Counted from the stretch's first letter, positions 7,618 to 62,519 are shown. The stretch: DNA of 64,000 nucleotides from a virus (IMGVR_UViG_3300022821_000011:13134-77133); one strand, 5' to 3'. The notes: a model not told the origin generated them from the sequence alone. Numbers and translations are program-made.

Positions 7618-7711
7618 TGGTACTCCCACCAGGATTCGAACCTGGGACGCTCTCTAATCTGGAGACGATGCTGAATATAAGTCAGGTGTTTTACCGCTAA
7701 ACTATGGGAGT
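7618..7711 (-). tRNA. Type II tRNA with a long variable arm; apparent anticodon UAU from loop CTTATAT, so identity is unclear (Leu, Tyr or Ser class)
   Basis: Acceptor ACTCCCA/TGGGAGT plus ACCA, T-arm CCAGG-TTCGAAT-CCTGG, 94 nt. Confidence 0.6.
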
Positions 7712-10242: not shown

Positions 10243-10253
10243 ATAATTATTTT

Positions 10254-10317
10254 GGAAGTCCTTGAAAGCCACAGTTTTACCCATTTGGAACTATTTATGC
10301 TTTCAAGGACTTCAATG
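10254..10317. repeat. Conserved hairpin element, copy 1 (15-bp stem GAAGTCCTTGAAAGC with a 29-nt loop), abutting the 3' end of tRNA-Ser
   Basis: Near-identical copies occur at 11453..11510, 14900..14963 and 20983..21046. Each lies immediately 3' of a minus-strand tRNA or tRNA-like gene. Confidence 0.8.
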
Positions 10318-10404
10318 CGGAAGATGCGGGATTCGAACCCACGAAACTATTTGAAGTTTGACAGTTTAGCAAACTGCTGATTTAAGCCACTCATCCAATC
10401 TTCC
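10318..10404 (-). tRNA. tRNA-Ser (GCU), type II; CCA not encoded
   Basis: Acceptor GGAAGAT/ATCTTCC, anticodon stem GCAGT/ACTGT, loop TTGCTAA, T-arm GTGGG-TTCGAAT-CCCGC. Confidence 0.75.
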
Positions 10405-11452
10405 AATTTATTTTTATTTATTAAGATCTAAGGTTGCTGGAAAACCCTGCACTTCAAATTTAGTTATTTTACCTTGTTCTCTAGATTTATCTGATATTTC
10501 ATCAAACCAGGCAAACAAAATATAGTCTATATTATTTGGATCAATTTCAATTTCAAGTATAACTCTCATAGTGTATCCTAACTATAATTAATATATAACT
10601 TTTGATAATATTTTAACACTCCATCATTTTGGCTTATTAAATTTTTTACCATTTCTGGCAGCATTCGTTCAACTTTTTCATATTCGGTTATTTCTACTCC
10701 ACGACTTAAGAATATTCCAAAAATTTCTTCAAATTCTTTAATTGCTCTTTCTTCTGGAGTATTGATTGTTTCTAAATTAGAATAATCATCAGAATTTATA
10801 TAATCGCCAGGCTTTGGATTGGCTCTAGTAACTAAAACAGCTTTAGTCATACCTTCTCCAGTAGCATAATAATCTGAAAGTAAAAAATATATTTTATCCA
10901 TGAACCAAAAACCTCACTGCTATTTCTATTTTACCAAATATTTCTTCATAATTTGTACGAATCAATGATGTACTTATTGTTCCAAACTTAAAGTTATACA
11001 CTTTCCTACGGACATCATATTCAACATTTCCAATAACTACACTAGTTGATTTCATTATAAATCCTCCTTAATGCTATGAGATATTAAATCAACAACATTA
11101 TAAGAAATATATAAAAAATTAAAAATTGATTCTTCTTTTGATTCGATACTAATGTTAGTTGTATAAGATAAACAATATATATCTATCTTATTAAAAATAT
11201 CTCTACTAAGTAAACGCATTAATCACTCCTGCATAAATGTGATCAGTAATGTCATAATTCACATATATTTTTCCAGTGTGTGTATTATGTATTTGCGAAT
11301 TAAAAGAAACTTTTAAAAGTATTTCAGATTCAAAATGATAGTAAATAATATCAGATGTGTTTTTCATATTAAAACCTCAATTCTCTTGATATCTTAAGAC
11401 AAATTTCTTGATAAAAATCACGACACTTTGTTATATCAATTTTATTCATTTA

Positions 11453-11510
11453 GGAAGTCCTTAGCTTATAAACCCGTCGACGGATATTTATAAAACTAAG
11501 GACTTCAATG
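11453..11510. repeat. Conserved hairpin element, copy 2 (stem GAAGTCCTTAG/CTAAGGACTTC)
   Basis: Same family as 10254..10317. Confidence 0.7.
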
Positions 11511-11585
11511 TGCCGGAACGCTTGGTTTCGAACCAAGTTTTCTTCCTTATGAGGAAAGCGAGATAACCAATACCTCCCCGCCGGC
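11511..11585 (-). tRNA. tRNA-like, anticodon CAU. The acceptor 3' strand carries a 2-nt insertion (CG-TT-CCGGC against 5' GCCGGCG); possibly a degenerate or specialised tRNA
   Basis: D-arm GAGG-TATTGGTTA-TCTC, anticodon stem CTTTC/GGAAG, loop CTCATAA, T-arm CTTGG-TTCGAAA-CCAAG. Confidence 0.45.
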
Positions 11586-11836
11586 TTAAAATTTTATAGT
11601 ATATTATTTGCTTTAATATAATTATAAAGTAAGCTATGACTGATAATATAACTATCATATACTTTTCGAAGTTCAAAAGGCGCTCTCATGTTATTTCCAT
11701 CAATCCAATTAAGAACTGTTCGCTCTTTTTTATTATAAATGGTTGTAGATAATTTCATCATTTTGATAATCCTATGTAAAAACAGCGATAATATTAATAT
11801 ATCATCGCTGCTCTAAATTGTCAATTATAAAATGTA

Positions 11837-13297
11837 TTAAACTGCAATATCGTATCGCTCATTCATAATTGTTTTAAGCATAATAGCTTCAGGTGTCATA
11901 TTCTCCATATCAGAGCTAAGCACTGACTTAACAATAGTTGGAGAGAAACCAGAAACCATAGCTATACCACGATCGTCAAATCTAACTGGCACATCTGATT
12001 TTGCATTAAGATTCCAGAATACAATACCCGGCATAATATATCCAGCCATTTCATACTTATGACGAATCATTTCTACAGCTGAATGATCTAGATTTGCACA
12101 TTGATCAAACTGCATATCTGACATGATCATAATAACATCTGGCATATCTTCTTGTGGTACACTATGAGCTACAGCAAGATTAAGAACTTTATCAAAAGCA
12201 GCATGAAGATTTGTATTCATTGCCCATTTTGAACGCTTCATTTGATCTACTTTCTGAAGAATATCACCTCTAAGAGTAAGCAATTCAGGAGAACCAGAGA
12301 AAGTAAGGAATGTGTCCTTATAAACTCCGGTATTCTTATCAGCCAAATACAGGCCAAGAGACACTGAAACATCAAGACAAGTAACAGATGATTTGCTAGT
12401 ATGCCCACCCGCTAGAGTCATCATTGATCCAGAAACATCTACCATTGGAAGAATCTTTGCATCTCCAACAAAATTTGGAAGAGCTTTCCACTGAGCAGCA
12501 ATATGACCCTTTTCAACATTTGTATATCTTTGGTCATTATATATACTAGCCAGACCCTTAAGAACATCATAAGGATATACTGCTCCAGCATTTACTTTAA
12601 CACTCTCATCACCAGAAGTTAGCTTCTCAACATATTCTTCAAAATTAACAGAGTGACGATTAAAAGCCTTCTTATATCTAGCTGAAGCAAGAGAAGGAAC
12701 TTTGCTATAATCAATAGCATCCCATTCATTTGCACACATAAGTGTTTCAACAACCTTTGTAAGTTCTACAAGACGCTTACGATAAAACTTTGGAGTCCAT
12801 CCAAAATACTTACGAAGACTAACTGCCTTAGGACCTTTTCGTGGCATCCACTTAGCGCAAAGACCATTTCCATCATCAAGAGCTTTCTTAATAAGATCAT
12901 AAGCATAAGCCTTAACTGGAATGCTTTCAAAATCTACAAGAAGATCATCCCAACGGCCAATTTCCGGAGTCTTATCAATAAGAGCTTTAGCCTGATCTTC
13001 TGGCAAAAACTTCAAAATGTCACGATATATCTGACGTTCACCGCTTCCTTCACGAGCATCTCGAACCCACTGAGCAATACGCAAAGCGTACTCAGGATTC
13101 TCCACATGAGCCGCTGTGAAATCCGGCTTGATATTCTTCCCACGAGAAGCTCCGATCTTGAAAAAAAGATCTACATTCTTATTTGCAGAAGTAACACGAG
13201 ACTTCATACCATTTTCGGTACGGGCTTCTTGTTCTTGAATTGAATCAATAAACTTATTCATTTTCATTTTCCTTTCATCTGGATAATTGACCACCAT
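11837..13297 (-). CDS. rsr: Ro60-like protein (TROVE-like N-terminal region plus a C-terminal vWA domain with MIDAS motif VDVSGSM). The likely true start is MKMNKF, near 13270
   Basis: MIDAS DxSxS in LPMVDVSGSMM; overall size and architecture match Ro60/Rsr; SD AAGGAAA upstream of the internal ATG. Confidence 0.55.
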   Translation of the reverse strand: MVVNYPDERKMKMNKFIDSIQEQEARTENGMKSRVTSANKNVDLFFKIGASRGKNIKPDFTAAHVENPEYALRIAQWVRDAREGSGERQIYRDILKFLPEDQAKALIDKTPEIGRWDDLLVDFESIPVKAYAYDLIKKALDDGNGLCAKWMPRKGPKAVSLRKYFGWTPKFYRKRLVELTKVVETLMCANEWDAIDYSKVPSLASARYKKAFNRHSVNFEEYVEKLTSGDESVKVNAGAVYPYDVLKGLASIYNDQRYTNVEKGHIAAQWKALPNFVGDAKILPMVDVSGSMMTLAGGHTSKSSVTCLDVSVSLGLYLADKNTGVYKDTFLTFSGSPELLTLRGDILQKVDQMKRSKWAMNTNLHAAFDKVLNLAVAHSVPQEDMPDVIMIMSDMQFDQCANLDHSAVEMIRHKYEMAGYIMPGIVFWNLNAKSDVPVRFDDRGIAMVSGFSPTIVKSVLSSDMENMTPEAIMLKTIMNERYDIAV

Positions 13298-13400
13298 TGG
13301 TCTTAATTACTCGCTAATGCGAATAATAGGAATCGAACCTATTATTATTTTTGCTGAATTTATCCTATTCTAAACATCAGGTTCAGTTTGCTTTTTTTGA
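13285..13400 (-). ncRNA. Circularly permuted tRNA-like module, candidate YrlA-type Y RNA number 2, in the 5' leader of the Ro60-like gene. Order is T-arm, acceptor stem closed by an ATTA loop, then D-arm
   Basis: Minus-strand order: T-arm ATAGG-TTCGATT-CCTAT, then TATTCGC, ATTA, GCGAGTA, then D-arm GACC-AATGGTG-GTC. There is no 5' acceptor partner in the normal position. Confidence 0.5.
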
Positions 13401-13589
13401 TTACAAGTCAAATGCTTTAAGCTTGCGGAAATGAACCTATTTTTATTTCAACAGATTAGTTATCTACTTCTTATTTAATGTGGAGAAATCGAAGACCACT
13501 GCCATGTTTTGATGGTTTGCTGCAACTAATCTAAATTCTAATTTTTATCTAACTACTACTAATTTTTACTTAAATATTCAACAGATTGA

Positions 13590-13710
13590 TATTTGCTACC
13601 TGCTCTACCAACTGAGCTACCTCTCCATAGAAAATGGTGGAGAGGGTTGGACTTGAACCAACGACCAGGGATTTTCAAGATCATGCTTTGATTGCTGTAA
13701 TCAATCTAAT
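13590..13710 (-). ncRNA. Circularly permuted tRNA-like module, candidate YrlA-type Y RNA number 1. Order is T-arm, acceptor 3' strand plus ACCA, an 8-nt loop, acceptor 5' strand, then D-arm
   Basis: Minus strand reads GTTGG-TTCAAGT-CCAAC CCTCTCC ACCA TTTTCTAT GGAGAGG TA GCTC-AGTTGGTA-GAGC. The flanks carry GATTGAT/ATCAATC complementarity. Confidence 0.5.
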
Positions 13711-13882
13711 TCTATTTACTCTATTTGTTTATACTGGATCATCTTGGTTTTTTTTTCAACAAAAAATAAATGATTGCGGAACTGATCCAAAACTCTATTG
13801 CGTTTGTATTCAACAGGATTAACTTTGCTTTTTTGAAATAAAAGTTTGTTTGATTGCTGTAATAATCCTAAATTATGTATAT

Positions 13883-13911
13883 ATTATATTCTATTCATAT
13901 ATTGATGTCAA
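13883..13911 (-). promoter_or_regulatory. Perfect consensus sigma70 promoter (TTGACA-17-TATAAT) directed at the Y-RNA-like modules and the Ro60-like gene
   Basis: Plus-strand tgtcaa at 13906-13911. The -10 on the minus strand is TATAAT, 17 nt downstream. Confidence 0.65.
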
Positions 13912-13928
13912 CAAGTATTTTTAATTTT

Positions 13929-14003
13929 TGGTGGAAATGGCTGGAATCGAACCAACAAATGCTCAATTATCAGTTGAGTGCCTGGCCACTTGGCTTCACT
14001 TCC
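13929..14003 (-). tRNA. tRNA-Ile (GAU)
   Basis: Acceptor GGAAGTG/CATTTCC plus ACCA, anticodon stem CTCAA/TTGAG, loop CTGATAA, T-arm GTTGG-TTCGATT-CCAGC. Confidence 0.75.
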
Positions 14004-14019
14004 TTAATAAGCAGGATGG

Positions 14020-14200
14020 TGAGAGAAACTACCAACTTCTCTCACCTCGACATCTTGCGGATGTTTAATATTACTTGCGGTAATATTCTAGGACGTCCAG
14101 ACGCCCTGAAGTTTTTTTTGTCGGATTACTTATAAATCCGAGGGAACATGCGTGCATAGCCCTAGTCCACGGCATAATTATTAACGACTAAATTATACAA
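14020..14200. ncRNA. GC-enriched structured non-coding segment upstream of tRNA-Ile. It includes a 10-bp hairpin GGTGAGAGAA...TTCTCTCACC (14023-14051) and the hairpin TCGGATT...AATCCGA. Possibly a small stable RNA
   Basis: No plausible ORF, local GC well above the genome background, several perfect stems. Confidence 0.35.
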
Positions 14201-14899
14201 AAACGGAATGTTAACGCTATCTCTGCGGGTTCTTTTACCAGCCAGCGGAATGTCGGTGGCCGGTTTTATCATAAAATTTACAATTAATAATTTGTTCTGG
14301 TATTCTTTTAAGAACATCTTTTTTCATTTCATCTTCTGCTTGAATTCTAGAATTAAAAATGCCAAGTCTTATTGTTTTTGTATTTTGTTTAAATATTTTT
14401 TGTATAAACGAAGTTTCTTCATGTTTAATAATAGCATCTAAATATATTTTGCCTTCTATAGATTCAGATATAATATATTCTTTAACTAACATTAGTTTCC
14501 CCAATCAAAATAATTTGTGGCAGTTGTATATGTGCCACCACTAGTGCATGATGTATCATATATTGGTTGGAAAACGCTAGCAGATGTATAAGTAGCGGTT
14601 GATGTTACATAAATTGTAGGACCATTTCTTTGATCCCATCGTATATCAGTTATCTCTCCATCTTTAACTACTCTACAATGTTCATGCCCACAAGACGGAC
14701 ATTCAAGAACATGATTTCCATTTAAAGCAACATCTACAATAAATTGAACCCAATTATCGCAGCCATGACAATGAATTTCTTGTCTATGCTCAGTCTTCTT
14801 TTTAGGAAAAATCTTAGGTTTCCATTTAGGTTTTCTTAATGCCATAATCACACTTATTTTCTAATTTGTTTATTTTGTCTATGCTATATAATTCACTTA

Positions 14900-14963
14900 G
14901 GAAGTTCTTGAAAGTCATAGTTTTACCCATCTGGAACTATTTGTACTTTCAAGAACTTCAATG
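14900..14963. repeat. Conserved hairpin element, copy 3
   Basis: GGAAGTTCTTGAAAGT...ACTTTCAAGAACTTCAATG. Both stem and loop are homologous to copy 1. Confidence 0.75.
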
Positions 14964-15042
14964 CGGGGAAGACGGGAATCGAACCCGCTTTGCTTTCGCG
15001 TCACAGCGACAGTGTGGTAGCTACCCATTTGCCATCATCCCC
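14964..15042 (-). tRNA. tRNA-like. Canonical T-arm and acceptor; possible anticodon GUC (Asp) from loop CTGTCGC, with an extended variable region that contains a GAAA tetraloop
   Basis: Acceptor GGGGATG/CTTCCCC with one mismatch, T-arm GCGGG-TTCGATT-CCCGT. The anticodon arm is ambiguous. Confidence 0.4.
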
Positions 15043-15284
15043 ATTTATCTTTCTAAAATCACATAATCACCAAAATACTTATCAAAAGTTTCAACAAGAT
15101 TTTCATAATCTCCTGAAGTCATTTCTTCACGAATTGTACCAAAATCTAAATTTAATTCTTTTGCATATTGTTTTGCATAACCAAGAAGAACATATGCATT
15201 ACCATCTGGACCAGTCAAATCAATTACTATTTCAGCAGTCCTTTGTTTTTTTCTAATCATAATGTGTTTCCTTATTATGATGTT

Positions 15285-15313
15285 ACTATATACTGTGTTC
15301 TATATGGTGTCAA
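15285..15313 (-). promoter_or_regulatory. Sigma70-like promoter TTGACA-17-TATAGT for ORF 15045..15260
   Basis: Plus-strand tgtcaa at 15308-15313; SD AAGGAAA precedes the ATG at 15260. Confidence 0.55.
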
Positions 15314-15831
15314 CATCTTTTAGCAAGTCTATGGCTCTTTTTTTCCAGTCATCTCTTTGCCATGCTATTTTTTCTTGACTCAATTCATGATAATCATTTG
15401 CAATGAATTCTACAAATCGTCTATATTGATCATATTTAGCAAACCAGGCATGAGTTGGATGAACTTCACCGGTTGATATAATATGATAACACGGAAAACA
15501 TAAATTACCTATAAATCTACCTTCATTTTCATGATTTGTACAGCCATATGTAATGCATTTTTTAATCATTTGGTGATCTCACTATGGTTGACTGTTTTTG
15601 AATTAAAAGTAAACCATCTGAAATATCAAAATTCTTACCTTTGACGACACAATACAACTCACCAGAAATCATATTTTCATATGGAACTGAATTAAGACTA
15701 GCGCACTTTCTCATATTCATATTACTGTCCGAAAAATTTACAAGCAACACAAATAAAGAAAATAATAAAATTGCTGCTAATACAAAAGAAAGAAATTTAG
15801 AGTCCATAATCATAACAAAATCCTTAATTGT

Positions 15832-15907
15832 TGGTGCTCATGGTGGGATTCGAACTCACACTGATTAGTTCCTAAAACTAATGCCTCTGCCGTTGGGCTA
15901 CACGAGC
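15832..15907 (-). tRNA. tRNA with anticodon UAG (reads CUA, Leu) but type I architecture with a short variable arm
   Basis: Acceptor GCTCGTG/CATGAGC plus ACCA, D-arm GCCC-AACGGCA-GAGG, anticodon stem ATTAGT/ACTAAT, loop TTTAGGA. Confidence 0.6.
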
Positions 15908-15908
15908 G

Positions 15909-16346
15909 TTATTCTAAATATTGTTTCCATTCTTTGGCGAATGAACAGTTTCTAGCGCCTTTAAAAAGAGGGGCAATTTCTTCGTCTTTAAATCCAGCTA
16001 ATCCACACCCAATTCTTGTTACAAAATATTGTGGCAAAATTTTATTAAATACCATAAAGTCATCATTCGTAACTCTAATAAAATCATTTATATATTGAAC
16101 GACCTCATTAAGTGAAAGAGTTCTAATGTTATTATCTTTTGTTGGAATAGCATAAGATTTAAAATCTGGCTGCCATCCTATTCCTTTTCCATATTGAGCA
16201 CCAAATTTAGAAGCAGCTATTTTAGCTGCTCCCGCTCCGTGTATTCCGGCAAGATTTGAACCAAAGACCCAAACTTCTTTATTTTCTGGAAGTGTTCTGT
16301 CTTTATGATATTTAATCGTGCTGATATTCATCAATATCAATACCAT
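15909..16346 (-). CDS. Macro-domain-like protein (putative ADP-ribose binding or hydrolase)
   Basis: VFGSNLAGIHGAGAAKIA resembles the macro-domain Gly-rich motif (NAANxxLxxGGGVxxAI). Confidence 0.35.
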   Translation of the reverse strand: MVLILMNISTIKYHKDRTLPENKEVWVFGSNLAGIHGAGAAKIAASKFGAQYGKGIGWQPDFKSYAIPTKDNNIRTLSLNEVVQYINDFIRVTNDDFMVFNKILPQYFVTRIGCGLAGFKDEEIAPLFKGARNCSFAKEWKQYLE

Positions 16347-17364
16347 CTCTTGAAATAATTACTTTGACATGATCACCAAACACCATTTCCATCACATCAT
16401 TTTCTACTTTTCCAATAATTTTACAAAAATCACCAAAACTCTTTTTAAAACTATCAAGTTCTTTTACATCATAGCTAGACAAAAAAGATTCAATTTTGTC
16501 AATTGATTTTTGTGCATCAACTGTTGAAGAAGGATATGGCTTTAAATTATTTTCTCCATAATATGAAGAATATTCTCGGCCATGCCTGATTTTATATTCA
16601 TCCATATATGATTGTCTCCATGCTTCTGGGTCTTCTTCATATAATTTTGCGGCAGCATAGGCTTTTTTAGCAGACTTTAAGTTTTCAGATGTATATATTG
16701 CTGATCCTTCATAATCGCAATACTCATCAGAATAATCACCATCTTCATCAATATCACTATTAAGAGTAAAACCAATTTCATTAACACTAAATTCACATGA
16801 TTCACCATCATTAAAATATGGAGTGTATTGAGTCCAAAAAATATCATGCACAAAAGGATAATTTTCAAAAATCTCTTTAGCGCCACGTTCAATAATAACT
16901 TTTGATTGATCACTCATTTTACTTTTCAGAACACTTATTTGATCTGAAAGTTCATTAAAGTTTTTAGTCAAAGTTTCATAATCAATTTCCATTATATATT
17001 TCCTTAATCAGAGTTTAAATTCATTTTTTTAGCAAATGCTTTTTGACCTACTCCAAGCATCCACGGCTTAGGTTCTATAGTTTCAACCCAGTCTTCAATC
17101 GTTGGAATTATACCACCACAGTCCTCTTTTACGTGATCCTCTCCTATATCTCGAACAGAAATATCTTTCCCATCTGAATTTGAAATAGTGGTTCCAAAAA
17201 CCTGTTCGCATAGAAAAATTCCAAATGTATTATGAAGAATTGCTCTATGACCAAAATTAGCATATGCTGCTTTTGTACTATCAAACCAGTCATGAATAGG
17301 CATGTAATCGGCAATTTCACCGCCATATCTTTTAACCGAATTTTTAGCATGAATATATGGTTTA

Positions 17365-18093
17365 ATGATTTTTCTCCTTATAAATAAAAATAAAAGGTTA
17401 ATTATGTATTATACTATATACAAAACTACAAATAATGTCAATAATAAAATTTATATTGGTATGCATCAAACCAAAAATTTAGATGATGGATATATGGGTT
17501 CAGGACTTCTTTTAACCAAATCTATAAAAAAATTTGGCAAAGAAAATTTTAATAAAGAAATTCTTCACGTTTTTGATAATGAAGAAGAAATGAATCTTAA
17601 AGAAAAAGAATTAGTAAATGAAGAATTTTGTAATTCTAATAATAATTATAATCTGTGTCCTGGAGGTAATGGTGGGGCTATTAGAAAAGGAGCAATTCTT
17701 ACACAAGAAACAAAAAATAAGATTTCAAAAAATACTAAAAAAGCAATGGAAAATAAAGAAATTCGTTTAAATCTATCGAACAAAAGAAAATCTCGAATTA
17801 CAAAAGACGAAACTAGAAAAAAAATGTCTGAAAGAGTTTCTAATACAACTTGGATATATCATTATAAATCAAAACAGTCTAAAATGATTCAACAACACGA
17901 AAAAGAAAAATATTTAAATTCTAATAAATGGTTTTTGGGTCGTGGTTTTAAAGCAAAAGGAACACCTAAAAAAGTAATGCTTTATAACATTGAATATTCT
18001 TCATTAAAAGAAGCAGCAAAAGATGTAAACAAAAGTGATACTTGGGTTAGAAATCAAATTAATAATCCAAATATTATTGCAGAATATATCTAA
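17365..18093 (+). CDS. GIY-YIG homing endonuclease (Seg-like), plus-strand, embedded in the tRNA array
   Basis: YTIYKTTN...IYIGMHQT...DGYMGSG GIY-YIG core. This is one of the very few plus-strand genes and is analogous to T4 segB in the tRNA cluster. Confidence 0.7.
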
Positions 18094-18111
18094 TTATATT
18101 CTTCTATTAAA

Positions 18112-18187
18112 TGGTGCTCCTAAAAGGATTCGAACCTCTGACGCGTAAATCTTCAATCTACCGCTCTACCAACTGAGCTATAGAAGC
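18112..18187 (-). tRNA. tRNA-Phe (GAA)
   Basis: Acceptor GCTTCTA/TAGGAGC, D-arm TAGCTCAGTTGGTAGAGC, loop TTGAAGA. Confidence 0.8.
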
Positions 18188-18223
18188 ATTATAAAATATG
18201 TTAACTCAAACGTCAACAAAAAA

Positions 18224-18297
18224 TGGATCCCCCGGCTGGACTCGAACCAACATATTAAGCACCAAAAACTTGCGTCCTACCATTAGACGACAGGGGA
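18224..18297 (-). tRNA. tRNA-Gln (UUG)
   Basis: D-arm GTCT-AATGGTA-GGAC, loop TTTTGGT, T-arm GTTGG-TTCGAGT-CCAGC, CCA encoded. Confidence 0.65.
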
Positions 18298-18666
18298 ATA
18301 ATTATCCTGTACCATTTGTTTTTAAATCCCATATTGTATTTGACATAATATTTCTTAAACTAGTAATATCATGCAAATTAATATTATTAACATCTGACCA
18401 ACCTGGTAATATAGAAATAAAAGTAGTTCCGTTTTTTCTATGTTTCTTGTGAAACTAACCACATCGTCGCCTCCACACTATATAAAACATCAAGTTGTTT
18501 TTTATTAAGTGACTTAATCGTATTAAAATTAGCAGAAGTAAAAGAATAAAAAGAATAATATTTATCACTATGTTTTACATTCTTAATAAATTGTATTTGT
18601 TTATCAATATTATCATTAAAAGTATAATGAGCGCTAACAAACAAACTGTGTAATTGTTTCATATTT

Positions 18667-18741
18667 TGGATCTTCCATGTGGATTCGAACCACAACTATT
18701 TGAGTCAGAGTCAAAGGTTCTACCAATTAAACTACAGAAGA
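18667..18741 (-). tRNA. tRNA-Gln (CUG)
   Basis: Anticodon stem TTTGA/TCAAA, loop CTCTGAC, T-arm GTGG-TTCGAAT-CCAC, CCA encoded. Confidence 0.7.
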
Positions 18742-18742
18742 A

Positions 18743-19078
18743 TTATTCTACTAACGTGATTTTTACTTCACATAGTCCATCACAACCAATTTTCTTAGCA
18801 GCCGCTTCTGATAAATCTATAGATCTACCTTTTATAAAAGGACCTCTGTCATTAATTCTTACAATAACAGATTTTCCTTTAAATATAACTTTTATAAAAG
18901 TTCCAAAGGGTAATATTTTATGAGCTGCTGTATAAGCATTCTTATTAAATATTTCTCCATTAGCGGTAAGCTTACCATGAAATCCTGGACCATACCAAGA
19001 AGCAATAACAACTTTAGGCTTAGATAAAGAAACAGTTGTAAAAACAATCAAAAATAATATTGGTAAAATTAATCTCAT
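18743..19078 (-). CDS. RlpA-like double-psi beta-barrel (DPBB) protein with a signal peptide; a putative peptidoglycan-binding or lytic accessory protein
   Basis: [17 protein letters not shown]...INDRGPF...[12 protein letters not shown] matches the RlpA/DPBB family. Confidence 0.7.
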
Positions 19079-20111
19079 TTAAAACCTACAAAAATTTAAA
19101 TGGTGGAACTTTTCTTTTAACACTATGCTTTTTCATATATATCTTATATTCTTTTAGCTTTTTTTCATATAGCTTTATATTTTCATCATATTCATCAAGT
19201 TTATCTTTAATATAGATTTCAGCATGTTTTTCAGAATCAAACAATATATCTGAAACAAAATTTTTAGTATAATCAGAAACCTTAAACCACATACAAAAAA
19301 ATCCATAATTATATTCAATATTATATTTATTATAAGCAGTTTGATCATTTACAATTCTATATGATCGCTTGGTTGGCTTATACGGCTTTATTAATTTATT
19401 TGAACTCATAATTCTTTTATTATCCATTCTTCTTTGATTTCAAGTTCTAGACATATATATTCATCTGAATATTCATCATATTTAAATCGATAACCCCAGC
19501 GTTCTCCATCATTATCTCCTTCATCTGAAGAAAAACAAATATCGCCAACACATTTGTTTTCAATCAAAATGTCAATTGTTTCTGGAATGCTACTTAAAAA
19601 ATCCATATGTTCATTTGCGTCACTATCAAATTCAATAGTTTTTCTGTCAATATCATATGCAATAAAATGACCTTCTTTATTTACAACCTTATCAATTTTA
19701 TCAAAAACTTCTAATGACACTTTTACTGTATTCTTAACACAATTTATAGTCCACATAATCTATTCCTTTATATGCGATGAAATTATACTTTTTAAATGAT
19801 GATACAATGCAGTAGTTCCACTATGAAGATCATGATGCTTTTCTATATCATCGCAAAGATCATTTAATAAACACTCAGAAGTAAAGTTCAAATTTTTCCA
19901 ATTTGGAATTGGTGTATTATTGTCCATTAAATCGCTACTTTTCTTTTAAGTCGAACATCACCTTCATCCATATAATCATCACCAGCATATTCTGAAAAAG
20001 TTTTATATAGTTCATTCCAAACTACATCAATTTCACAAACAGTCATTTCTATATAAGTATGATCTGATGCTGGTACTAAAATAGTTTCTTTCATAATATA
20101 TTTCCTTTTAG

Positions 20112-20201
20112 TGGAGGAAGGAGCGGGATTCGAACCCGCGGAACCTTGCGGTTCGTCTGCTTTCAAAACAGAAGCCTTAAGCCAGACTCGGCCACCCTTC
20201 C
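20112..20201 (-). tRNA. tRNA-Ser (UGA), type II
   Basis: TGGCCGAGT...GG D-arm, anticodon stem TCTGT/GCAGA, loop TTTGAAA, variable hairpin GAAC-CGCAAG-GTTC. Confidence 0.8.
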
Positions 20202-20982
20202 AATATTATTTTACATTTAATTTTTCGAAAAGAAGTTTCCATTTTTCTTCTGGAGTTTCTGTTACAATAGCATTTACAATTTCAACTAATGTATCATGAT
20301 ATTTTTCTGGATGTCGAAAATAAAAACTTGCATATGTGCTATCAAACGAATCATCTTCATCATAATGATATAGAGGATGATCTCTCATTGCTTCGAAAAC
20401 TTCTTCATAAGCTTCTCTGTTTCCACCACCACATCTAGTATAAACAACAAGATGATCTTCTGTCAAATAAGCATCTCTAAATCTTCCAAAATCTACTGAT
20501 GTTAATTCTAAAACACCTAAAACCAATGGAGAAATTGCATTAACTCCAAATGTCATATTATATAAACTCATTTTATTAATCCAATGTCGTTGTAGTTTTT
20601 TTAAGTCTTATGTGAGAAACAGTCCAATTATTACTTTCAATAGTTTGTTTTATATCATTTTCAAATTCTTCAACTTCTTTATCATTTTTACAATTAAAAT
20701 TTCCAGAAAATTCATCCCCAGAGTCTTCAATAGTAACAATGAATGTATATGAGTCTGCCATAATATATCATCCTTAATAAATAAGAGACGTATCAGTTAT
20801 ACGTTCCATTAAATCAAATATAGCCCACGCTTGACAACCCAAACACATTGCTTCATGGCGATCACATCGATCACCATATATTTCTGTTAAAACTCTAGCC
20901 TGTTTATTAAGAGCTTCTTCTCTTAGGTTTCTAAGTTTCTTTTTTTTTCATTTTATATCCTTAATCGCTCATAAAGCATTTA

Positions 20983-21046
20983 GGAAGTCCTTGAAAGTCA
21001 TAGTTTTATCCATTTGGAACTATTAATACTTTCAAGGACCTCAATG
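20983..21046. repeat. Conserved hairpin element, copy 4
   Basis: GGAAGTCCTTGAAAGT...ACTTTCAAGGACCTCAATG. Confidence 0.75.
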
Positions 21047-21120
21047 TTGCGCCAGGTGGAATTGAACCAGCCGATTTCCGGATAATGAGTCCAGCGAGAT
21101 GACCTCTTCTCTACAGCGCG
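21047..21120 (-). tRNA. tRNA-like with anticodon CAU, a C1:A72 mismatch and T37 (initiator-like or degenerate)
   Basis: U8A9 present, D-arm GAGA-AGAGGTCA-TCTC, anticodon stem CTGGA/TCCGG, loop CTCATTA, T-loop TTCAATT. Confidence 0.45.
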
Positions 21121-28060: not shown

Positions 28061-29398
28061 TTATAGCTTAGCCCTTTCTCTAACTTCTTCAAATGTGGTT
28101 TCATTATACATATAACCATGTGAATATCTTTTCTTAAAAGAGCTATTTGTAATAAGACCAGCCTTAGATGCTTTTGAGCGATCTGTGATTGGATCTTTCT
28201 TTACATCAAACCAAACAACACCATTATACGATGCAGAACTAGTTTTCATTGCAAAGCTTAGATCATCTCTATTTACTTTTTGAAGCAAACCACCGCCCAT
28301 ACCAAAGGCCCAATTTTCTACACTAATTCCTCTATCTATAAGCTCTTTCACACATTCACGAATAGTATCAATATTGCATCCATCGCCCTGAATCGCACGA
28401 ACGCAGTCTTCAAAAACGATAAAACCTTTATTGTTAACAGTATAATTATCAAACGATTTAAGAATTCTTTCAGAAACCTGGCCAATCATCGATGAAATTG
28501 GACTGCCACTATCTGGTCTAATCACAAGAGTTCCACCAGAATTACGAACTTTTTCTTTCAACTTATTACCCCACCCTTCGGTGATTGCTTCCCAGATGTT
28601 ATAACTATCTGATACGCAAGAATAAAGAGCGTTGGTTTTTGCATAAGTATCTAAAAAATGTTCAAACATTTCATATTCACGGTCCTTGCCCCAACAAGTT
28701 ACAGTCGAATGCTCACTAGCAGGAATAGAAAAACCAGCCATATCTTCACCATAATATACTTTGGCAGCTTCTAAAGCTTCGACTGTATCGGTTCCCATAA
28801 AGTTAATCAAATGAGCCATGCCGCCCAATGCAGCTGATTCGCCAGAAGTCGCTCCCCTACCGCCAAAGTCATGTAACTTAAACGCGATCTGGCCATCTGG
28901 ATCATCGCACGATTCTTGCAAACCAGCATATATAATCTTTTTTACTTCACGTGACACAGTCGCTACAGTTGATGGATACCATATTGCTCTATGGAGCGCA
29001 GTTTCAATAAAGGCTGGAAGCCATGGAAACCTATCATCTGCGTTTCTTACTTCTAGAAGAGGTGTTCCCAATGGAACTACGGTGCCTTCGTCGATAGCAG
29101 AAATTTGAATAGGAAGAAAACCATCAAACTCATTAACGATTATGTCCCATCCTTCTCTATCAAAAGGAAGGCCATGAGCAGTAATTCTCTTTTCTGCATA
29201 ATCAATATCTTCTTTTACAATTGGATCTAATAGATATTCTTTTAGATATGATTGCAGGCCAAAGTAAACCATAGAATCAAACTTATTTGATTTTCTTCCT
29301 TCGAGATATGAACTCATATACTTGATATTAGGATCAATAAGTTTTGAATGAGAAAATTTGTAACTGTCTGTAGATAAAATAAAATTTCTTTTTAGCAC
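28061..29398 (-). CDS. nadV: Nicotinamide phosphoribosyltransferase (NadV/Nampt)
   Basis: MLKRNFILSTDSYKFSHSKL... NAPRTase family; 445 aa. Confidence 0.8.
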   Translation of the reverse strand: MLKRNFILSTDSYKFSHSKLIDPNIKYMSSYLEGRKSNKFDSMVYFGLQSYLKEYLLDPIVKEDIDYAEKRITAHGLPFDREGWDIIVNEFDGFLPIQISAIDEGTVVPLGTPLLEVRNADDRFPWLPAFIETALHRAIWYPSTVATVSREVKKIIYAGLQESCDDPDGQIAFKLHDFGGRGATSGESAALGGMAHLINFMGTDTVEALEAAKVYYGEDMAGFSIPASEHSTVTCWGKDREYEMFEHFLDTYAKTNALYSCVSDSYNIWEAITEGWGNKLKEKVRNSGGTLVIRPDSGSPISSMIGQVSERILKSFDNYTVNNKGFIVFEDCVRAIQGDGCNIDTIRECVKELIDRGISVENWAFGMGGGLLQKVNRDDLSFAMKTSSASYNGVVWFDVKKDPITDRSKASKAGLITNSSFKKRYSHGYMYNETTFEEVRERAKL

Positions 29399-29731
29399 TG
29401 TAATAACTCCTATTACGTTTATGTTTAAATTTTTACCACCACCAATGAATTAAAACATCTCCAGTGATACTGCATTTTTTAAAATAATCAGAAATAATTG
29501 GATATTCTTCAGACAATTCTGCCTCATCCCAACTAAAATAATAATAATCATTTCCAAGTTCATGATCTTGCCATAATCTTTTAACTTCTTCTTCAACTTC
29601 TACTGGACAATCCGTCCACTGAGCATCAAAAACAAGTTTTGCACTAAATGCAGATGGTATATTACTACTATCTACTTCCTGCCATTTGTTAGTTTTATGT
29701 ACGTGGGCAGTAGTTCTTCCTGAATATTTTA

Positions 29732-30811
29732 TCATAATTTCACCATATCATCTATTATATCAAAGTGATCTTCAAAAATAACACCTCTATCGAGATCATT
29801 AAGAGGAATCCATTTCGCTTTTGCAGCATCATCAGAACCTTTTACTTTTGGAAGTTCTTGCATATCCGTCAAATGAATATAATGAGCATGCGTTATAGTT
29901 CTTCCACGCTGAGATCTATATGGATCATCATACACTTTAACTTGTTTAATTGATCCACGAAGAACGGCCGCAGGAACTTTAATTTTTGTTTCTTCTCTTA
30001 GCTCTCTAATCATAGCATCTTCAATAGTTTCAAATTGATTGATGAAACCACCAGGGATTGCTAATTGACCAAGACCAGGCATCGCGCCGCGTTCAATCAT
30101 AAGAATATGACCAGATTGAACCACTACTGCATCTACAGTATTAAAAGTTGGAGGGAACGGTGAATGAGACCAACTTTTCTTATATGAAATCAAATGCTCA
30201 TTTTCAGCTCTTATATATTCAAAGTCTTTTGGGTTTTCTTCAGCCCAGCTTTCAAGATATTCAACTACTGCTATTGGCATCTCAGCAGCTCTTCTTGGAA
30301 ACATAAGAGTCCAAGGATTAAACAAATCTTCTCTAACAGTTGTAGCATCAAGAACTACATATTGTTCAACATTTTCACTTCCCCATTGAGGAAATAAATT
30401 AAGATAAAAAGATGAATGATCTTTTGCGTGACCAATCAATCCAATTTTTGTGGGTCCGGCTTTCCATTTTTTATTAATGATATGATTGACTTGACCTTGA
30501 ATACTAGAAACCCACTTATCTAAATTATAAGTATAATCTTCTTGATATGCAAAATCTATAGCAGAACTATAAGCAGCAACACGATCAAATAAATCAGTGC
30601 CTCTAGTTATTTCCATCATAGAATCAAGAATCATTTGTTTTCTTTCTTGACTAGTCCAAGGGTTACGTAATGATCTAGGCTGGTTGTGCGAGCCCAATAC
30701 TATAATAATTTTTTCGGAAAGTTCTAGTGCTCTTCTGATAACATTTAAATGTCCATTGTGCACTGGCTGAAATCGGCCTATAAAGACCAGATAATCGTAT
30801 TTGTATGACAT
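29732..30811 (-). CDS. nadM: Bifunctional NMN adenylyltransferase (NadM-type) plus Nudix ADP-ribose pyrophosphatase
   Basis: FIGRFQPVHNGHL nucleotidyltransferase motif and Nudix box IRELREETKIKV. A T4-late-like TATAAATA sits 38 nt upstream, with SD AAGGGAG. Confidence 0.8.
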   Translation of the reverse strand: MSYKYDYLVFIGRFQPVHNGHLNVIRRALELSEKIIIVLGSHNQPRSLRNPWTSQERKQMILDSMMEITRGTDLFDRVAAYSSAIDFAYQEDYTYNLDKWVSSIQGQVNHIINKKWKAGPTKIGLIGHAKDHSSFYLNLFPQWGSENVEQYVVLDATTVREDLFNPWTLMFPRRAAEMPIAVVEYLESWAEENPKDFEYIRAENEHLISYKKSWSHSPFPPTFNTVDAVVVQSGHILMIERGAMPGLGQLAIPGGFINQFETIEDAMIRELREETKIKVPAAVLRGSIKQVKVYDDPYRSQRGRTITHAHYIHLTDMQELPKVKGSDDAAKAKWIPLNDLDRGVIFEDHFDIIDDMVKL

Positions 30812-39662: not shown

Positions 39663-40223
39663 TTAATCTTCTTCATTTTCCAACTCATCTTCTATTACTT
39701 CTTCATCATTAGACATTATATTACCAGTTCCAATCGCATACTTATTGTAAATATGTTCTTTGAAATCTGTATTTTCAAATAGATTCTTCCAAAATCTAAA
39801 GTTTGTTTTAATATCTTTTTCTAACATAGGTTCACCGATTAACTCTCCAGTATTTTTATTTACTGCTTGAAGACCATTAGATCTACTAATCTTTACTTTT
39901 GTTAAATATCCACCATCTACAGCTGTTTCTGATAATCCAGAATATTTACTAATGCCACCATCAAAATTGACGGTAATAGGAATTTTTGATTTTTCTTTTA
40001 CAAATCTAGATTTTTCAACGTTAATTATGAAATTGTACCCAGCCAGAGCTTTATCAGAATCCTTTTCTTGTTGTCTACCTATGATCCATACAGTATCAGC
40101 AGAATACATCACTCCAGTATTATGAGTAATGGCTCCATTTTCTAAAGCATAGTGTTGTACATCTTCTACAGATATATCATATACATTTTTGTTTCCCACA
40201 CTTTTAACACTTTTAATTTTCAT
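39663..40223 (-). CDS. uvsX: Split-intein C-terminal half (about 35 aa ending ...VQHYALENGAITHN) fused to the UvsX C-extein (TGVMYSADTVWIIG...)
   Basis: Intein block G (HN) followed by a +1 Thr. The C-extein aligns with T4 UvsX from TGPMYSADTV onward. Confidence 0.75.
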   Translation of the reverse strand: MKIKSVKSVGNKNVYDISVEDVQHYALENGAITHNTGVMYSADTVWIIGRQQEKDSDKALAGYNFIINVEKSRFVKEKSKIPITVNFDGGISKYSGLSETAVDGGYLTKVKISRSNGLQAVNKNTGELIGEPMLEKDIKTNFRFWKNLFENTDFKEHIYNKYAIGTGNIMSNDEEVIEDELENEED

Positions 40224-41067
40224 TCTTTTTACACCTTTCGTTGTGCCATCTTTTTATATTTCCAACAGTACTTTCTATTCCACAAATAAAACAGACTTCT
40301 CTTTTTTGTTTAATAGAAGAAGGATTTTTCCAAACAGACAAATCATATTTCTCTATATCTTTAATTTTTATTCTAATGCATCTTCCATCTTGTATGTTTT
40401 TTAACATAAGAAAACCTTTTCTTCCTATCTTTTTTTTATGTTCTTCTGATTTAGGAATGCCCATTCTATCTAAACTCATTTTTAATTTTACTTCTTTGGA
40501 ACGAACGCTTCCTAAATTTTTATTAGATATGAGTTTTTTTGTTTTTTTAGAATGTTTTTTTCCATAAAATGGATTTTTTTCTCCTGATATATTATTAGAT
40601 ATAGATGCTTTATGTTCTTCACTCAGCTTCCTGCCTTTTGTCACACCTACCCACTCATTATTTAAAACTCTAGGATGATCTCTTGGAAGTCTTGCAATTT
40701 TTCCAGTCTCTAGATTTTTATATGTAGCATAATTTGAATCTAAATAATTACTAATAGTCGCAATCGATTTATTAAAATATTCAGGTGATGCGACAACACC
40801 ATAAAAAATGTGAAGTTCTTTTTCCTTTTCTAAACACTTTTCGTATGAATCAAAACTTTCTAAAATTTCTATTTCATAATCACAGTATTCAACTATATTT
40901 TTGTATTCTGGATCACAAGAGGATCCAAAATATTCGTTGTTTCTAGAATCATAAATTTTATTATTTCTAATAATACAATTAGATTTGCTTCCAATATACC
41001 TGTTTGGAAATCTATTTCTATCAATTTTAATTAAATAGACTATATTGCTATATCTGCTGTGTAACAT
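40213..41067 (-). CDS. Free-standing GIY-YIG homing endonuclease with NUMOD3-like repeats, inserted between the two uvsX split-intein halves
   Basis: VYLIKIDRNRFPNRYIGSKSN...YFGSS GIY-YIG core; repeated SEEHKxxIS NUMOD-like motifs. It is in a different frame from both uvsX pieces. Confidence 0.7.
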   Translation of the reverse strand: MLHSRYSNIVYLIKIDRNRFPNRYIGSKSNCIIRNNKIYDSRNNEYFGSSCDPEYKNIVEYCDYEIEILESFDSYEKCLEKEKELHIFYGVVASPEYFNKSIATISNYLDSNYATYKNLETGKIARLPRDHPRVLNNEWVGVTKGRKLSEEHKASISNNISGEKNPFYGKKHSKKTKKLISNKNLGSVRSKEVKLKMSLDRMGIPKSEEHKKKIGRKGFLMLKNIQDGRCIRIKIKDIEKYDLSVWKNPSSIKQKREVCFICGIESTVGNIKRWHNERCKKNEN

Positions 41068-49186: not shown

Positions 49187-49544
49187 TTATATTCGCATAG
49201 ATTCGTAATATCTATACCGCTTTCGCTGCTTTATATTGCTATAAAGATTAGACTATATCTTCATCCCAATTTATTGGGAGCTGGGCGCTTCGAAAACCAT
49301 GTACTTGTTTTCTACTCCTTTCGGATAGTCGTTGAACCTTCCATTTTTCAATGGCTTGGCTGCTGATAATCCACGCGGGACGTCCCAGCAATTCACCCAG
49401 TTATCATCTTTAAATTACTTTAAAGTGAGGCAGATTTACCATACATAGGAGTTGCAATGAACAATTTCTTTTTTCTTAATTCTTCAATTGGAACTTTTAA
49501 TTGAAATCCTTGATTTGGTGCTTGTTCTTCTTTTTGTTCTTCAC

Positions 49545-52924: not shown

Positions 52925-52933
52925 ATCAAATCC

Positions 52934-54016: not shown

Positions 54017-54019
54017 ATA

Positions 54020-55713: not shown

Positions 55714-55777
55714 ATTGTTCTCCTTTATATCAGTTTTTTACGTGGCAATTTGTCTGGAGCAGAGTAGGCCACAAATA

Positions 55778-56266: not shown

Positions 56267-56421
56267 AAAATAAAAGTTTAGACGCGCTTAATATCGCTAC
56301 TCCTGATATTTGAAAATACATAATTGATAAAGATAATGAATAGTGTATAAGCACATATTTTCCAATTGGAATTATTAAATAACCATTCAATAAAATAAGT
56401 AAAAGTATTACAATTATAACT

Positions 56422-62500: not shown

Positions 62501-62517
62501 TATTTGTTTGGTGTCAA
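62489..62517 (-). promoter_or_regulatory. Sigma70-like promoter TTGACA-17-TATAAA driving the tmRNA
   Basis: Plus-strand tgtcaa at 62512-62517. Confidence 0.5.
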
Positions 62518-62519
62518 CA

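Follow-up and report, generated by a model that had tools for sequence, protein, structure and literature searches.

Why should four copies of a conspicuous hairpin sit at the 3' ends of tRNA genes in a phage tRNA cluster, and what would they do there? The window in which they lie (the whole stretch of DNA analysed, 64 kb) is T4-like, with homologues of gp43, gp44 and gp45, and comes from an AT-rich, aquatic phage distant from T4 itself. A sequence-only reading of the region had suggested a tRNA 3' processing or termination signal, a target site at which tRNA genes are shuffled by some mobile or recombination system, or part of a larger tRNA-fusion ncRNA. The second of these comes closest, although the hairpin appears to be an expression leader of a homing endonuclease gene (HEG) and not a target site. 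Each element is probably the leader at the 5' end of a free-standing, SegB-type GIY-YIG HEG cassette lodged in a tRNA CCA end.

The four copies, labelled W1 to W4, are 58-64 nt long and lie on the minus strand, which is the tRNA sense (Table 1). A covariance model built from the family described below finds exactly four matches in the 64 kb window (10245-10318, 11444-11511, 14891-14964 and 20974-21047; 68-72 bits, E ~1e-14), and these are the copies that had been reported. The stem that all four were said to share is 15 bp long in W1, W3 and W4, which indeed have the 29-nt loop in common as well, but only its lower 11 bp (GAAGUCCUUAG/CUAAGGACUUC) recur in W2, where the upper part differs. Every copy begins, as had been claimed, with a C directly after the discriminator base of a minus-strand tRNA, in the form acceptor-N73-CAUUGARG. 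Predicted folding energies range from -24.9 to -27.3 kcal/mol (z-scores -5.3 to -6.6; 0 of 200 shuffles fold as well), and the predicted shape is a 15-bp stem plus an inner stem of 5-6 bp with an asymmetric loop, minimum-free-energy and family consensus structures alike being one unbranched hairpin. The stem of W3 differs from that of W1 by two compensatory changes, C-G to U-A twice, and W4 has one G.U pair, formed only in minus-sense RNA. CAUU is paired with AAUG or AGUG in the predicted folds of W2, W3 and W4, the start codon is gone from W1, and AAGGA is found in the 3' arm of the window hairpins. The loop was also considered as coding sequence (MGKT.../MDKT...), a reading rejected on the grounds that the substitutions are non-synonymous and compensated in the stem.

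Table 1. Hairpins, linked tRNAs and associated features, in coordinates of the window
Feature	Position	Strand	Remarks
tRNA-Ser(gct)	10317..10404	-	no encoded CCA; N73 = G, then CAUUG...; Rfam 52.8 bits
W1 leader hairpin	10254..10317	-	directly after tRNA-Ser(gct); 15-bp stem
W1 octamer CATAAATA	10299-10292	-	late-promoter-like
W1 AAGGA in 3' arm	10263-10259	-	
tRNA-Arg(tcg), downstream of W1	10242-10166	-	11-nt gap, no ORF
tRNA-Met(cat)-like	11512..11583	-	no CCA; aberrant acceptor/T-stem junction; 27.0 bits, below gathering score
W2 leader hairpin	11453..11510	-	after tRNA-Met(cat); CAUU predicted to pair with AAUG
W2 octamer, exact TATAAATA	11492-11485	-	
W2 ATG	11449-11447	-	opens 26-codon ORF only
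Small ORF after the 26-codon ORF of W2	11367-11206	-	ATG 2 nt past preceding stop
tRNA-Asp(gtc)	14963..15042	-	no CCA; 80 nt; U.U mismatch 6:67; long variable region; 34.5 bits
W3 leader hairpin	14900..14963	-	after tRNA-Asp(gtc)
W3 octamer TACAAATA	14945-14938	-	
W3 GTG	14896-14894	-	opens 5-codon ORF
Exact TATAAATA of window HEG	17379-17386	+	17 nt before ATG
SegB-like GIY-YIG HEG	17404..18093	+	only intact one in window; antisense to tRNAs
tRNA-Phe near window HEG	18112-18187	-	CCA end 18 nt from HEG stop codon
tRNA-Met(cat)	21046..21120	-	no CCA; C1:A72 mismatch; 37.6 bits
W4 leader hairpin	20983..21046	-	after initiator-like tRNA-Met(cat)
W4 octamer TATTAATA	21028-21021	-	
W4 ATG	20979-20977	-	opens 8-codon ORF

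The tRNAs to which the hairpins are attached are set apart by what they lack. The window holds 26 tRNAs, CCA is encoded in 22, and the other four are exactly the hairpin-linked ones, a point absent from the earlier reading. Three of these four had been called non-canonical, and their Rfam scores are indeed low (27.0 for the tRNA-Met before W2, matched at 11513-11583 and under the gathering score of 29; 34.5 for the tRNA-Asp; 37.6 for the tRNA-Met before W4, matched at 21047-21120; at least 49 for the other 23, tRNA-Ser(gct) at 10318-10404 among them). The acceptor defect ascribed to the last of them, however, we take to be no defect at all but the initiator-type C1:A72. This mismatch is a hallmark of bacterial initiator tRNA, and the gene that carries it consequently looks like one for an initiator. 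Any tRNA without an encoded CCA must be cut and given one, and the four would presumably acquire theirs post-transcriptionally.

The concern that the copies might not be conserved beyond the window is settled by their relatives, since the same element recurs in other T4-like phages, aquatic and uncultivated, where it lies between a CCA-less tRNA and a SegB-like GIY-YIG HEG. In the family it consists of N73-CAUUGAA, a covarying stem, TATAAATAG, the returning stem and CCUAAUG. Loci with both element and HEG (L136, L155c, L155d, L155e, L183, L234 and L261, the L numbers denoting loci of relatives) have ORFs of 187-213 aa that start MFYTVYKITN..., match PHROG 314 'homing endonuclease' (E 1e-37 to 6e-43) and, in their first 87-91 residues, share 50-66% identity with the window HEG (tblastn E 1e-26 to 3e-34). 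Pfam GIY-YIG and SegE_GIY-YIG matches of the HEG ORFs fall just under the cut-offs, and in 900 phage records the tblastn matches coincide with annotated Seg-like HEGs. A same-strand tRNA ends no more than 110 nt upstream of 54 of 72 unique HEG loci and is CCA-less in 50 of those 54. Viewed from the tRNAs (1081 unique), a HEG start lies within 130 nt of 66 of the 148 without CCA as against 8 of the 933 with it (odds ratio 93, p = 1.8e-54). The outer helix covaries, 13 of 14 pairs changing on both sides (a level reached in 0 of 500 shuffles), and G.U pairs are confined to the tRNA-sense strand. The predicted start-codon pairing of CAU(U) with (A)AUG is found also in L136, L261 and many other HEG loci. 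The covariation of the L155 copies gives no support to a pseudoknot in which CAUU would pair with AAUG in the loop.

How the element reaches a tRNA can be seen where occupied and empty sites are available side by side. At the empty sites L137 and L138 the sequence runs tRNA-Ala...CCA-CCA-TT-next tRNA; at the occupied site L136 it runs ...CCA-C-ATTGAAAG, leader, HEG, two tRNAs, ...CA-CCA-TT-next tRNA, with flank identities of 98.7% for L137 and 94% for L138. Leader, HEG and two tRNAs have inserted exactly into the CCA of tRNA-Ala, and the junction lies inside it. The same pattern is known from T4, where the segB region is polymorphic among related phages and takes tRNA genes along (PMC2330249). 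T4 SegB has GGTTCRANTCC as its recognition motif and cleaves immediately behind CCAR, and the target of the SegB-like enzyme would likewise be the T-loop and CCA end of tRNA genes (PMC2330249). Insertion would turn CCA into CA plus leader, removing the CCAR cleavage determinant of SegB-type enzymes, which would explain why exactly these tRNAs are CCA-less. The comparison also bears on the idea of a palindromic repeat of MITE or REP type that spreads autonomously and lies next to tRNAs by chance. Such a repeat would account for several copies per genome that are similar within one genome, but it is scarcely credible here: the L155 copies have very different stem sequences within one genome, fully compensated, which recent transposition would not give; the position is fixed next to N73 and the 3' end at the start codon; and the leader comes and goes with the HEG.

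What the leader might do is suggested by the octamer TATAAATA, the T4 late-promoter consensus. Taken over the entire window it shows no enrichment (15 sites against an expected 15.5), and minus-strand sites show a weak preference for ORF starts (4 of 11 within 60 nt, against 14% expected). Upstream of HEGs, by comparison with an expectation of 0.0085 occurrences per locus, an exact copy is found within 70 nt of the start at 40 of 72 loci, and a copy with at most one mismatch at 56 of 72, clustered at -25 to -50. The octamer is present at the same position in all four window hairpins, exact in W2 and with one mismatch in W1, W3 and W4, and of the sigma-70-like promoter matches in the region the top six by strength lie, without exception, upstream of tRNA-leader units and on the minus strand. 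The T4 paradigm suggests a two-stage switch. Early read-through transcripts from the tRNA would fold the leader into the long hairpin, in which the 5' arm would pair with the Shine-Dalgarno-containing 3' arm and the CAU next to N73 with the AUG; with both paired, the endonuclease would not be translated early. The putative late promoter would lie in the unpaired upper part of the hairpin, and late transcripts, beginning inside the hairpin and lacking the 5' arm, would hence be translatable.

Precedents for such an arrangement are well described. A late promoter lies inside the hairpin that sequesters the ribosome-binding site (RBS) of I-TevI, I-TevII, I-TevIII, segB and mobE (PMC2988022), and at segB the hairpin occludes Shine-Dalgarno and AUG (PMC2330249). 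The window leaders appear to resemble the switches of I-TevI, I-TevII, I-TevIII, Aeh1 mobE and T4 e and soc, where the RBS is sequestered on early read-through and late transcripts, owing to the position of the late promoter, are made without the 5' arm (PMC2988022). Unlike these, their 5' arm starts right behind the tRNA discriminator, and a residual 'CA' forms part of the anti-start-codon. The closest likeness is to T4 tRNA-Ile, which has no CCA and is followed 41 nt further on by segB, the intervening hairpin (GAACATAAATA/TATTTATGTTC) holding the ATG: like the family, this locus combines a CCA-less tRNA, a hairpin at once, a (C/T)ATAAATA octamer, start-codon pairing and a GIY-YIG ORF beginning MFY..YKITN. 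The window hairpins are longer (58-64 nt, where T4 has 41 nt), possess a separate inner stem and carry the octamer unpaired in their upper part rather than in the 5' arm, and whereas segB follows the hairpin in T4, no endonuclease gene comes after W1-W4. A cultured T4-like phage, Klebsiella phage KP182 (Jiaodavirus), offers a similar case: its annotated Seg-like GIY-YIG endonuclease is preceded, at a distance of 64 nt, by a tRNA-Met that lacks CCA, and a hairpin lies in the gap, although this leader has a different sequence and a TATAAT-type box, without TATAAATA.

Promoter, Shine-Dalgarno and start-codon pairing together account for all the conserved nucleotides of the element, and this weighs against a primary role as a tRNA 3' processing or termination signal. 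A terminator scan found no U-tract terminator at W1-W4, the hairpins being followed by CCUAAAUG or CCAAAAUAA, and Rfam, searched at gathering thresholds and at E <= 10, returned no family above threshold and no ribozyme on them; its sole match was mir-974, a microRNA-precursor family and generic hairpin, which reached 21.9 bits on W4 (E 2.5) where the gathering score is 90. The larger tRNA-fusion ncRNA likewise finds no support. A more specific version of the processing idea gives the hairpin a main role in RNA processing or stability, for instance as a substrate of RNase III, for which phage T7 offers a precedent, or as an RNase P minihelix-like one. The tRNA 3' end would by such means be freed for trimming and CCA addition. 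Its predicted shape is compatible with an RNase III site (~20 bp of dsRNA, internal loop): a stem that totals ~21 bp and is interrupted by an asymmetric internal loop stands immediately 3' of N73, and a U precedes the helix's first G-C pair. The need of CCA-less tRNAs for cutting and CCA addition points the same way, as do the HEG-linked tRNAs of the relatives, which are well formed (52-72 bits) and so presumably used. We nevertheless regard this as improbable, given that the stem sequence varies freely and the only conserved unpaired bases are those of the promoter octamer, that start-codon and Shine-Dalgarno pairing explain the 5' CAU and the purine run of the 3' arm, that at the empty sites the tRNA-Ala in question has a plain CCA end and no hairpin behind it, and that so few CCA-bearing tRNAs (the 8 of 933) have a HEG start nearby.

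A self-cleaving ribozyme that frees the tRNA 3' end would be in the right place, as minimal HDV-like theta ribozymes of gut phages lie directly after CCA-less phage tRNAs (PMC10879173). It is very improbable all the same: no Rfam ribozyme family matches at E <= 10, the unbranched hairpin has neither the nested P1/P1.1/P2/P3 pseudoknot nor the J4/2 cytosine of an HDV-like fold, no conserved nucleotides remain unexplained, and the link is to a downstream endonuclease, not to RNA cleavage. A manual fit of P1/P2/P3 to an HDV-like or theta fold also failed and left a plain hairpin.

Returning to the endonuclease leader as the preferred reading, the genes that should follow W1-W4 are missing. With seven HEG proteins (tblastn, E <= 50) no HEG remnants beyond chance appear behind any copy, and a profile of 55 HEG 5' ends (nhmmer) finds in the window only the intact gene at 17404. 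The codons after W3 resemble YTIYKITN by eye, a likeness that is not claimed as a remnant, both searches having found none. Because of this absence W1-W4 are to be regarded as orphan leaders and not as active members, and their HEG origin is therefore read from leader homology alone. Megablast of the region against cultured phages matches only the HEG (~17400-17590), to T4-family seg genes (segB/segD). Elsewhere in the cluster, the ORF at 11837-13297 matches DUF2828/DUF7788 in Pfam, and a Ro60 identity is rejected for it. Exact-pattern scans with the window stem gave at least 119 loci in viral contigs and 3 in metagenomes, all of them chance matches, and in neither was a close relative of the window phage found. 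HEG loss or incomplete homing would probably have left them as solo leaders. Two solo leaders among the relatives appear from their sequence to be decay intermediates: in L155a ~41 nt from the start of the HEG survive (85% identity), and in L155b the next tRNA follows directly, as in W1.

The missing genes and the lack of window-wide TATAAATA enrichment speak against the orphaned-leader account, and two further observations sit uneasily with it. All four window copies are solo, although elsewhere such leaders are a rarity (some 3-4 in roughly 70), and three of the four octamers are one base off TATAAATA. Perfect stems with compensatory changes among solo copies also hint at selection on the hairpin itself. 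The solo hairpins might thus have been exapted and kept for their own sake, either as cleavage-immune tRNA alleles without CCAR or as late promoters or translational gates for what lies downstream, where the tRNA-Arg after W1 and the small-ORF operon after W2 are candidates. We judge this somewhat unlikely. The perfect 15-bp stems of solo copies, the two compensatory double changes between W1 and W3, the single G.U pair of W4, an intact HEG within the same genome, the ATG of the next ORF only 2 nt past the stop of the short ORF after W2, and the preference of SegB for cutting after CCAR (PMC2330249) are all in keeping with it; but the compensatory changes may have arisen while HEGs were still attached, the promoter octamer is imperfect in three of four copies, and the poor scores of three of the four linked tRNAs may be a sign of decay. 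A bolder version, which we hold to be unlikely, is that the orphan leaders are selected 'immunity scars', alleles resistant to SegB-type cleavage in which CCA has been replaced by CA plus hairpin and which still serve as late promoters for downstream genes. They would protect against the resident HEG and co-infecting phages, and may arise systematically, through homing-associated repair synthesis that breaks off at the strong palindrome, which, if so, would explain why W1-W4 are solo yet structurally perfect.

The result accounts for the striking repeat of this tRNA cluster as well as for its four CCA-less tRNAs: repeat and CCA loss are traces left by homing endonucleases on the move at tRNA 3' ends, and no new RNA-processing device need be invoked. 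Both the leader switch and the tRNA-Ile/segB arrangement are already known from T4, and the window copies add to a known type. As theta ribozymes occupy the same context in gut phages, caution is warranted, and not every structured element after a CCA-less tRNA should be taken for a processing ribozyme. For annotation a simple rule follows: where a phage tRNA without CCA is succeeded by a TATAAATA-bearing hairpin, and this in turn by an ATG, the order is the mark of a Seg-type cassette or of the scar it left. More broadly, the survey, with its 72 HEG loci, 1081 tRNAs and one clean occupied/empty pair, carries the T4 segB paradigm to many uncultivated aquatic T4-like phages.

ARAGORN places 26 tRNAs and a tmRNA in the window, all of them minus-strand genes. 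When each tRNA is inspected with its flanks, 22 prove to carry an encoded CCA at the 3' end, and the four that lack it are exactly those preceding the hairpin element. At all four junctions the acceptor stem and discriminator base (N73) run straight into the element (acceptor-N73-CAUUGARGUYC). A repeat finder recovered the family (D1, D5), and a covariance model, built later than the initial detection, finds precisely these four copies (W1 to W4) in the whole 64 kb at 68-72 bits; four copies directly 3' of a tRNA discriminator, as the sequence-only reading had it, are thus confirmed as real and not chance. Three of the element-linked tRNAs have the lowest tRNA scores of the window (27.0, 34.5 and 37.6 bits), and one of these, with a C1:A72 mismatch, looks like an initiator tRNA. 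Elsewhere in the window, a tRNA-Ile(tat) of 94 nt has an extra arm unusually long for its type.

Given that theta ribozymes, which are minimal HDV-like ribozymes, lie at precisely the 3' terminus of CCA-less gut-phage tRNAs (PMC10879173), a processing ribozyme was the obvious first lead. The location is alike; the double pseudoknot is not, as the element cannot be drawn as one, and an HDV-like ribozyme was rejected. The element folds instead as one unbranched hairpin: the lower stem (11-15 bp) leads through an asymmetric internal loop into an inner stem (5-6 bp), which is closed by the apical loop. For W1-W4 the long hairpin has folding energies of -24.9 to -27.3 kcal/mol per copy and z-scores of -5.3 to -6.6. 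Rfam, even at E <= 10, holds no family for it, the only match being a sub-threshold microRNA precursor (a generic hairpin) on W4. W1 and W3 differ by two compensatory double changes, and one G.U pair of W4 would turn into a C.A mismatch if the opposite strand were the one that folds. The element is therefore structured as RNA, in the tRNA sense. Stems wholly different among copies (GAAGUCCUUGAAAG, GAAAGACUCUGCUG, GAAGUCUCCGGAUG, GGGAUUCCCAUUUG, GAAAUCCCCGAUUG, GAAACCUCGAUUUG) always keep their pairing. Of 14 outer pairs, 13 are changed on both sides and the observed covariation is reached in 0 of 500 shuffles, in a model-based alignment that is fitted to the structure and hence favours it.

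Exact-sequence scans for the element gave chance matches only. Relatives were retrieved via a neighbouring 486-aa ORF, ARAGORN was run on 80 loci, and CCA-less tRNAs were listed. The element, whose conservation the earlier reading had left to be checked, occurs in these phages after tRNA-Ala (locus L136), after five different tRNAs (L155, copies a-e) and in divergent form (L183), with further loci from a pattern scan (L207, L213, L234, L248, L261, L274). Conserved features are limited to four (see table); in predicted folds CAU(U) pairs with (A)AUG and the purine run is buried. The octamer TATAAATA, the T4 late-promoter consensus, has one mismatch in each of W1, W3 and W4. The window itself is T4-like, with homologues of family B DNA polymerase, gp44 clamp loader and gp45 clamp.

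Positions of the element, its neighbours and other features (window coordinates unless a related locus is named)
Feature	Position	Strand	Detail
W1	10254..10317	minus	then tRNA-Arg after 11 nt
W2	11453..11510	minus	then 26-codon ORF, its stop 2 nt before ATG of next small ORF
W3	14900..14963	minus	then 5-codon ORF
W4	20983..21046	minus	then 8-codon ORF
tRNA-Ser(gct)	10317-10404	minus	CCA-less, element-linked
tRNA-Met(cat)	11512-11583	minus	CCA-less, element-linked
tRNA-Asp(gtc)	14963-15042	minus	CCA-less, element-linked
tRNA-Met(cat)	21046-21120	minus	CCA-less, element-linked
C-A-U-(U)	directly after N73		conserved part
(G)UAUAAAUAG	upper loop, 5' side		conserved part
AAGGA, GAGG, GGAG or GGGGA	3' arm		conserved part, purine run
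CCUAA then start codon	3' end		conserved part
Promoter match	11824-11796	minus	upstream of W2 unit
Promoter match	15313-15285	minus	upstream of W3 unit
ORF after W4	20770-20952	minus	ATG, run of nine A, stop after 6 codons
Intact endonuclease gene	17404-18093	plus	region 17365-18093; exact octamer 17379-17386
tRNA-Phe	18112-18187	minus	
tRNA-Ile(tat)	7618-7711	minus	
YrlA-like match	13572-13694	minus	relatives: L127 536-646, L140 1220-1337
DUF2828/DUF7788 ORF	11837-13297	minus	vWA-type
NUMOD3-motif ORF, intein-like match	40213-41067, 41040-41999	minus	
Group I intron	49229-49448	minus	Rfam 83.8 bits
Base-modification gene set	50622-57150	minus	
tmRNA	62145-62521	minus	relative: L296 1846-2187
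NAD salvage genes	28061-30811		NAPRTase, NMNAT-Nudix
Occupied site	L136 11689-12500		
Empty sites	L137 about 11690, L138 about 9692		
Solo leaders	L155 3252-3370 and 4982-5050, L291 4822-4960		

At L136, L155c/d/e, L183, L234 and L261 the element's start codon is that of a 187-213-aa ORF (MFYTVYKITNNINGKYYIGKH... at its N-terminus), and these ORFs are homing endonucleases. They match PHROG 314 (E 1e-37 to 6e-43) and annotated Seg-like endonucleases in 900 cultured phage records, score just under the Pfam GIY-YIG and SegE_GIY-YIG cut-offs, and are homologous to the only intact homing endonuclease gene (HEG) of the window, a SegB-like GIY-YIG gene whose DNA matches segB/segD of T4-type phages. 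That gene is antisense to every window tRNA and has its own exact octamer; its stop codon and the CCA end of tRNA-Phe are only 18 nt apart, so that it, too, adjoins the 3' end of a tRNA, though in inverted orientation and without loss of the CCA.

Alignment of HEG proteins fetched 80 loci (72 unique), and in 54 of the 72 a same-strand tRNA ends <=110 nt upstream of the HEG; 50 of these 54 tRNAs are CCA-less, with 16 different isoacceptor types covered. Among 1081 unique tRNAs, an HEG starts within 130 nt of 66/148 CCA-less vs 8/933 CCA-bearing ones (odds ratio 93, Fisher p 1.8e-54). The octamer lies <=70 nt upstream of the HEG start exactly in 40/72 loci and with <=1 mismatch in 56/72, against an expectation of 0.0085 per locus, clustering at -25 to -50. 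N73-C-AUAG, N73-C-AUAA and N73-C-AUUG are the junctions seen most often, and leaders of a second type have N73-CC-CUUGAGUC, small hairpin, octamer, Shine-Dalgarno sequence in that order. The HEG-linked tRNAs of relatives are well formed (52-72 bits) and presumably used, with CCA added post-transcriptionally.

One clean occupied/empty pair is available, its cassette comprising leader, HEG and two additional tRNA genes: the flanks of L136 are 98.7% identical in L137 and 94% in L138, and ~806 nt are absent from both. The empty site reads tRNA-Ala ...GGCATTCCA-CCA-TT-GGGGG (next tRNA), the occupied one ...GGCATTCCA-C-ATTGAAAG, leader, HEG, two extra tRNAs, ...GTCAGCA-CCA-TT-GGGGG. The insertion point lies inside the CCA of tRNA-Ala, the cassette carrying tRNA genes along with the endonuclease. 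By this comparison, the leader is gained or lost jointly with the HEG. Of the roles first suggested, a link to a mobile or recombination system comes nearest, the element being the cassette's leader rather than its target site; RNA processing is unsupported as the main role.

The T4 SegB site spans 27 bp and includes the T-loop motif GGTTCRANTCC, with cleavage mostly right after CCAR; segB and several tRNA genes are missing from phages T2L, RB1 and RB3, and the segB Shine-Dalgarno sequence and AUG are predicted to lie hidden in a stable hairpin (PMC2330249). T4 tRNA-Ile (...GGGTCA-TATTTTGAGAACATAAATACTC...) is CCA-less, segB starts 41 nt on (ATGTTCTATTAC...), and in the leader GAACATAAATA pairs with TATTTATGTTC. 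T4 shares the order of CCA-less tRNA, hairpin and Seg-type HEG with the relatives' element loci, as does Klebsiella phage KP182. A review discussing late promoters describes a general switch, naming I-TevI, I-TevII, I-TevIII, segB and mobE, in which the position of the late promoter keeps the inhibitory structure out of late transcripts (PMC2988022). On this paradigm and the sequence features, the leader hairpin would occlude HEG translation early and transcription would start inside the hairpin late. In this region the top six sigma-70-like promoter matches all lie on the minus strand, which would fit early read-through transcription of tRNA and leader.

Other features of the window deserve mention. 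A DUF2828/DUF7788 ORF is preceded at short distance by a sub-threshold match to YrlA (Y RNA-like family; 40 bits vs gathering score 69, E 4e-6), and this pairing recurs in relatives. There, CCA-less pseudo-tRNAs called by ARAGORN and then a conserved GTTCAGCA motif adjoin this ORF, the pseudo-tRNA lying upstream of it in L127, L139 and L140 and just downstream in L177 and L182; tRNA-like ncRNA and protein may form a conserved module. The replication module holds more mobile DNA, namely a group I intron, a NUMOD3-motif ORF and a weak intein-splicing-domain match beside the family B DNA polymerase. The tmRNA, also found in a relative, is two-piece, permuted and of alpha-proteobacterial type (tag peptide ANDNFAPLALAA), which suggests an alpha-proteobacterial host. 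DNA base hypermodification is suggested by ORFs resembling a C5-cytosine methylase and a thymidylate synthase and by a 5-hmdU DNA kinase helical domain, and NAD salvage genes are present.

No HEG stands behind any of W1-W4, and neither tblastn nor an nhmmer profile of HEG 5' ends finds a remnant there. After W4's A run a long ORF (KKKLRNLREEALNKQ...) continues in another frame, which points to a sequencing error in the homopolymer or else to a slippery site. Among relatives, solo leaders follow CCA-less tRNAs in L155a, where ~41 nt of the HEG start are kept at 85% identity, in L155b, where the next tRNA follows, and in L291; these cases document that an HEG can be lost while its leader stays. 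The element is genuine, conserved and structured, and it is the leader that SegB-type homing endonuclease cassettes carry at the CCA ends of tRNAs, a known kind of element that occurs here in a distant aquatic T4-like phage and in an orphan state. That all four window copies are solo with stems intact is unusual; they may be simple scars, aborted-homing products, or copies kept as alleles immune to cleavage or as late promoters.
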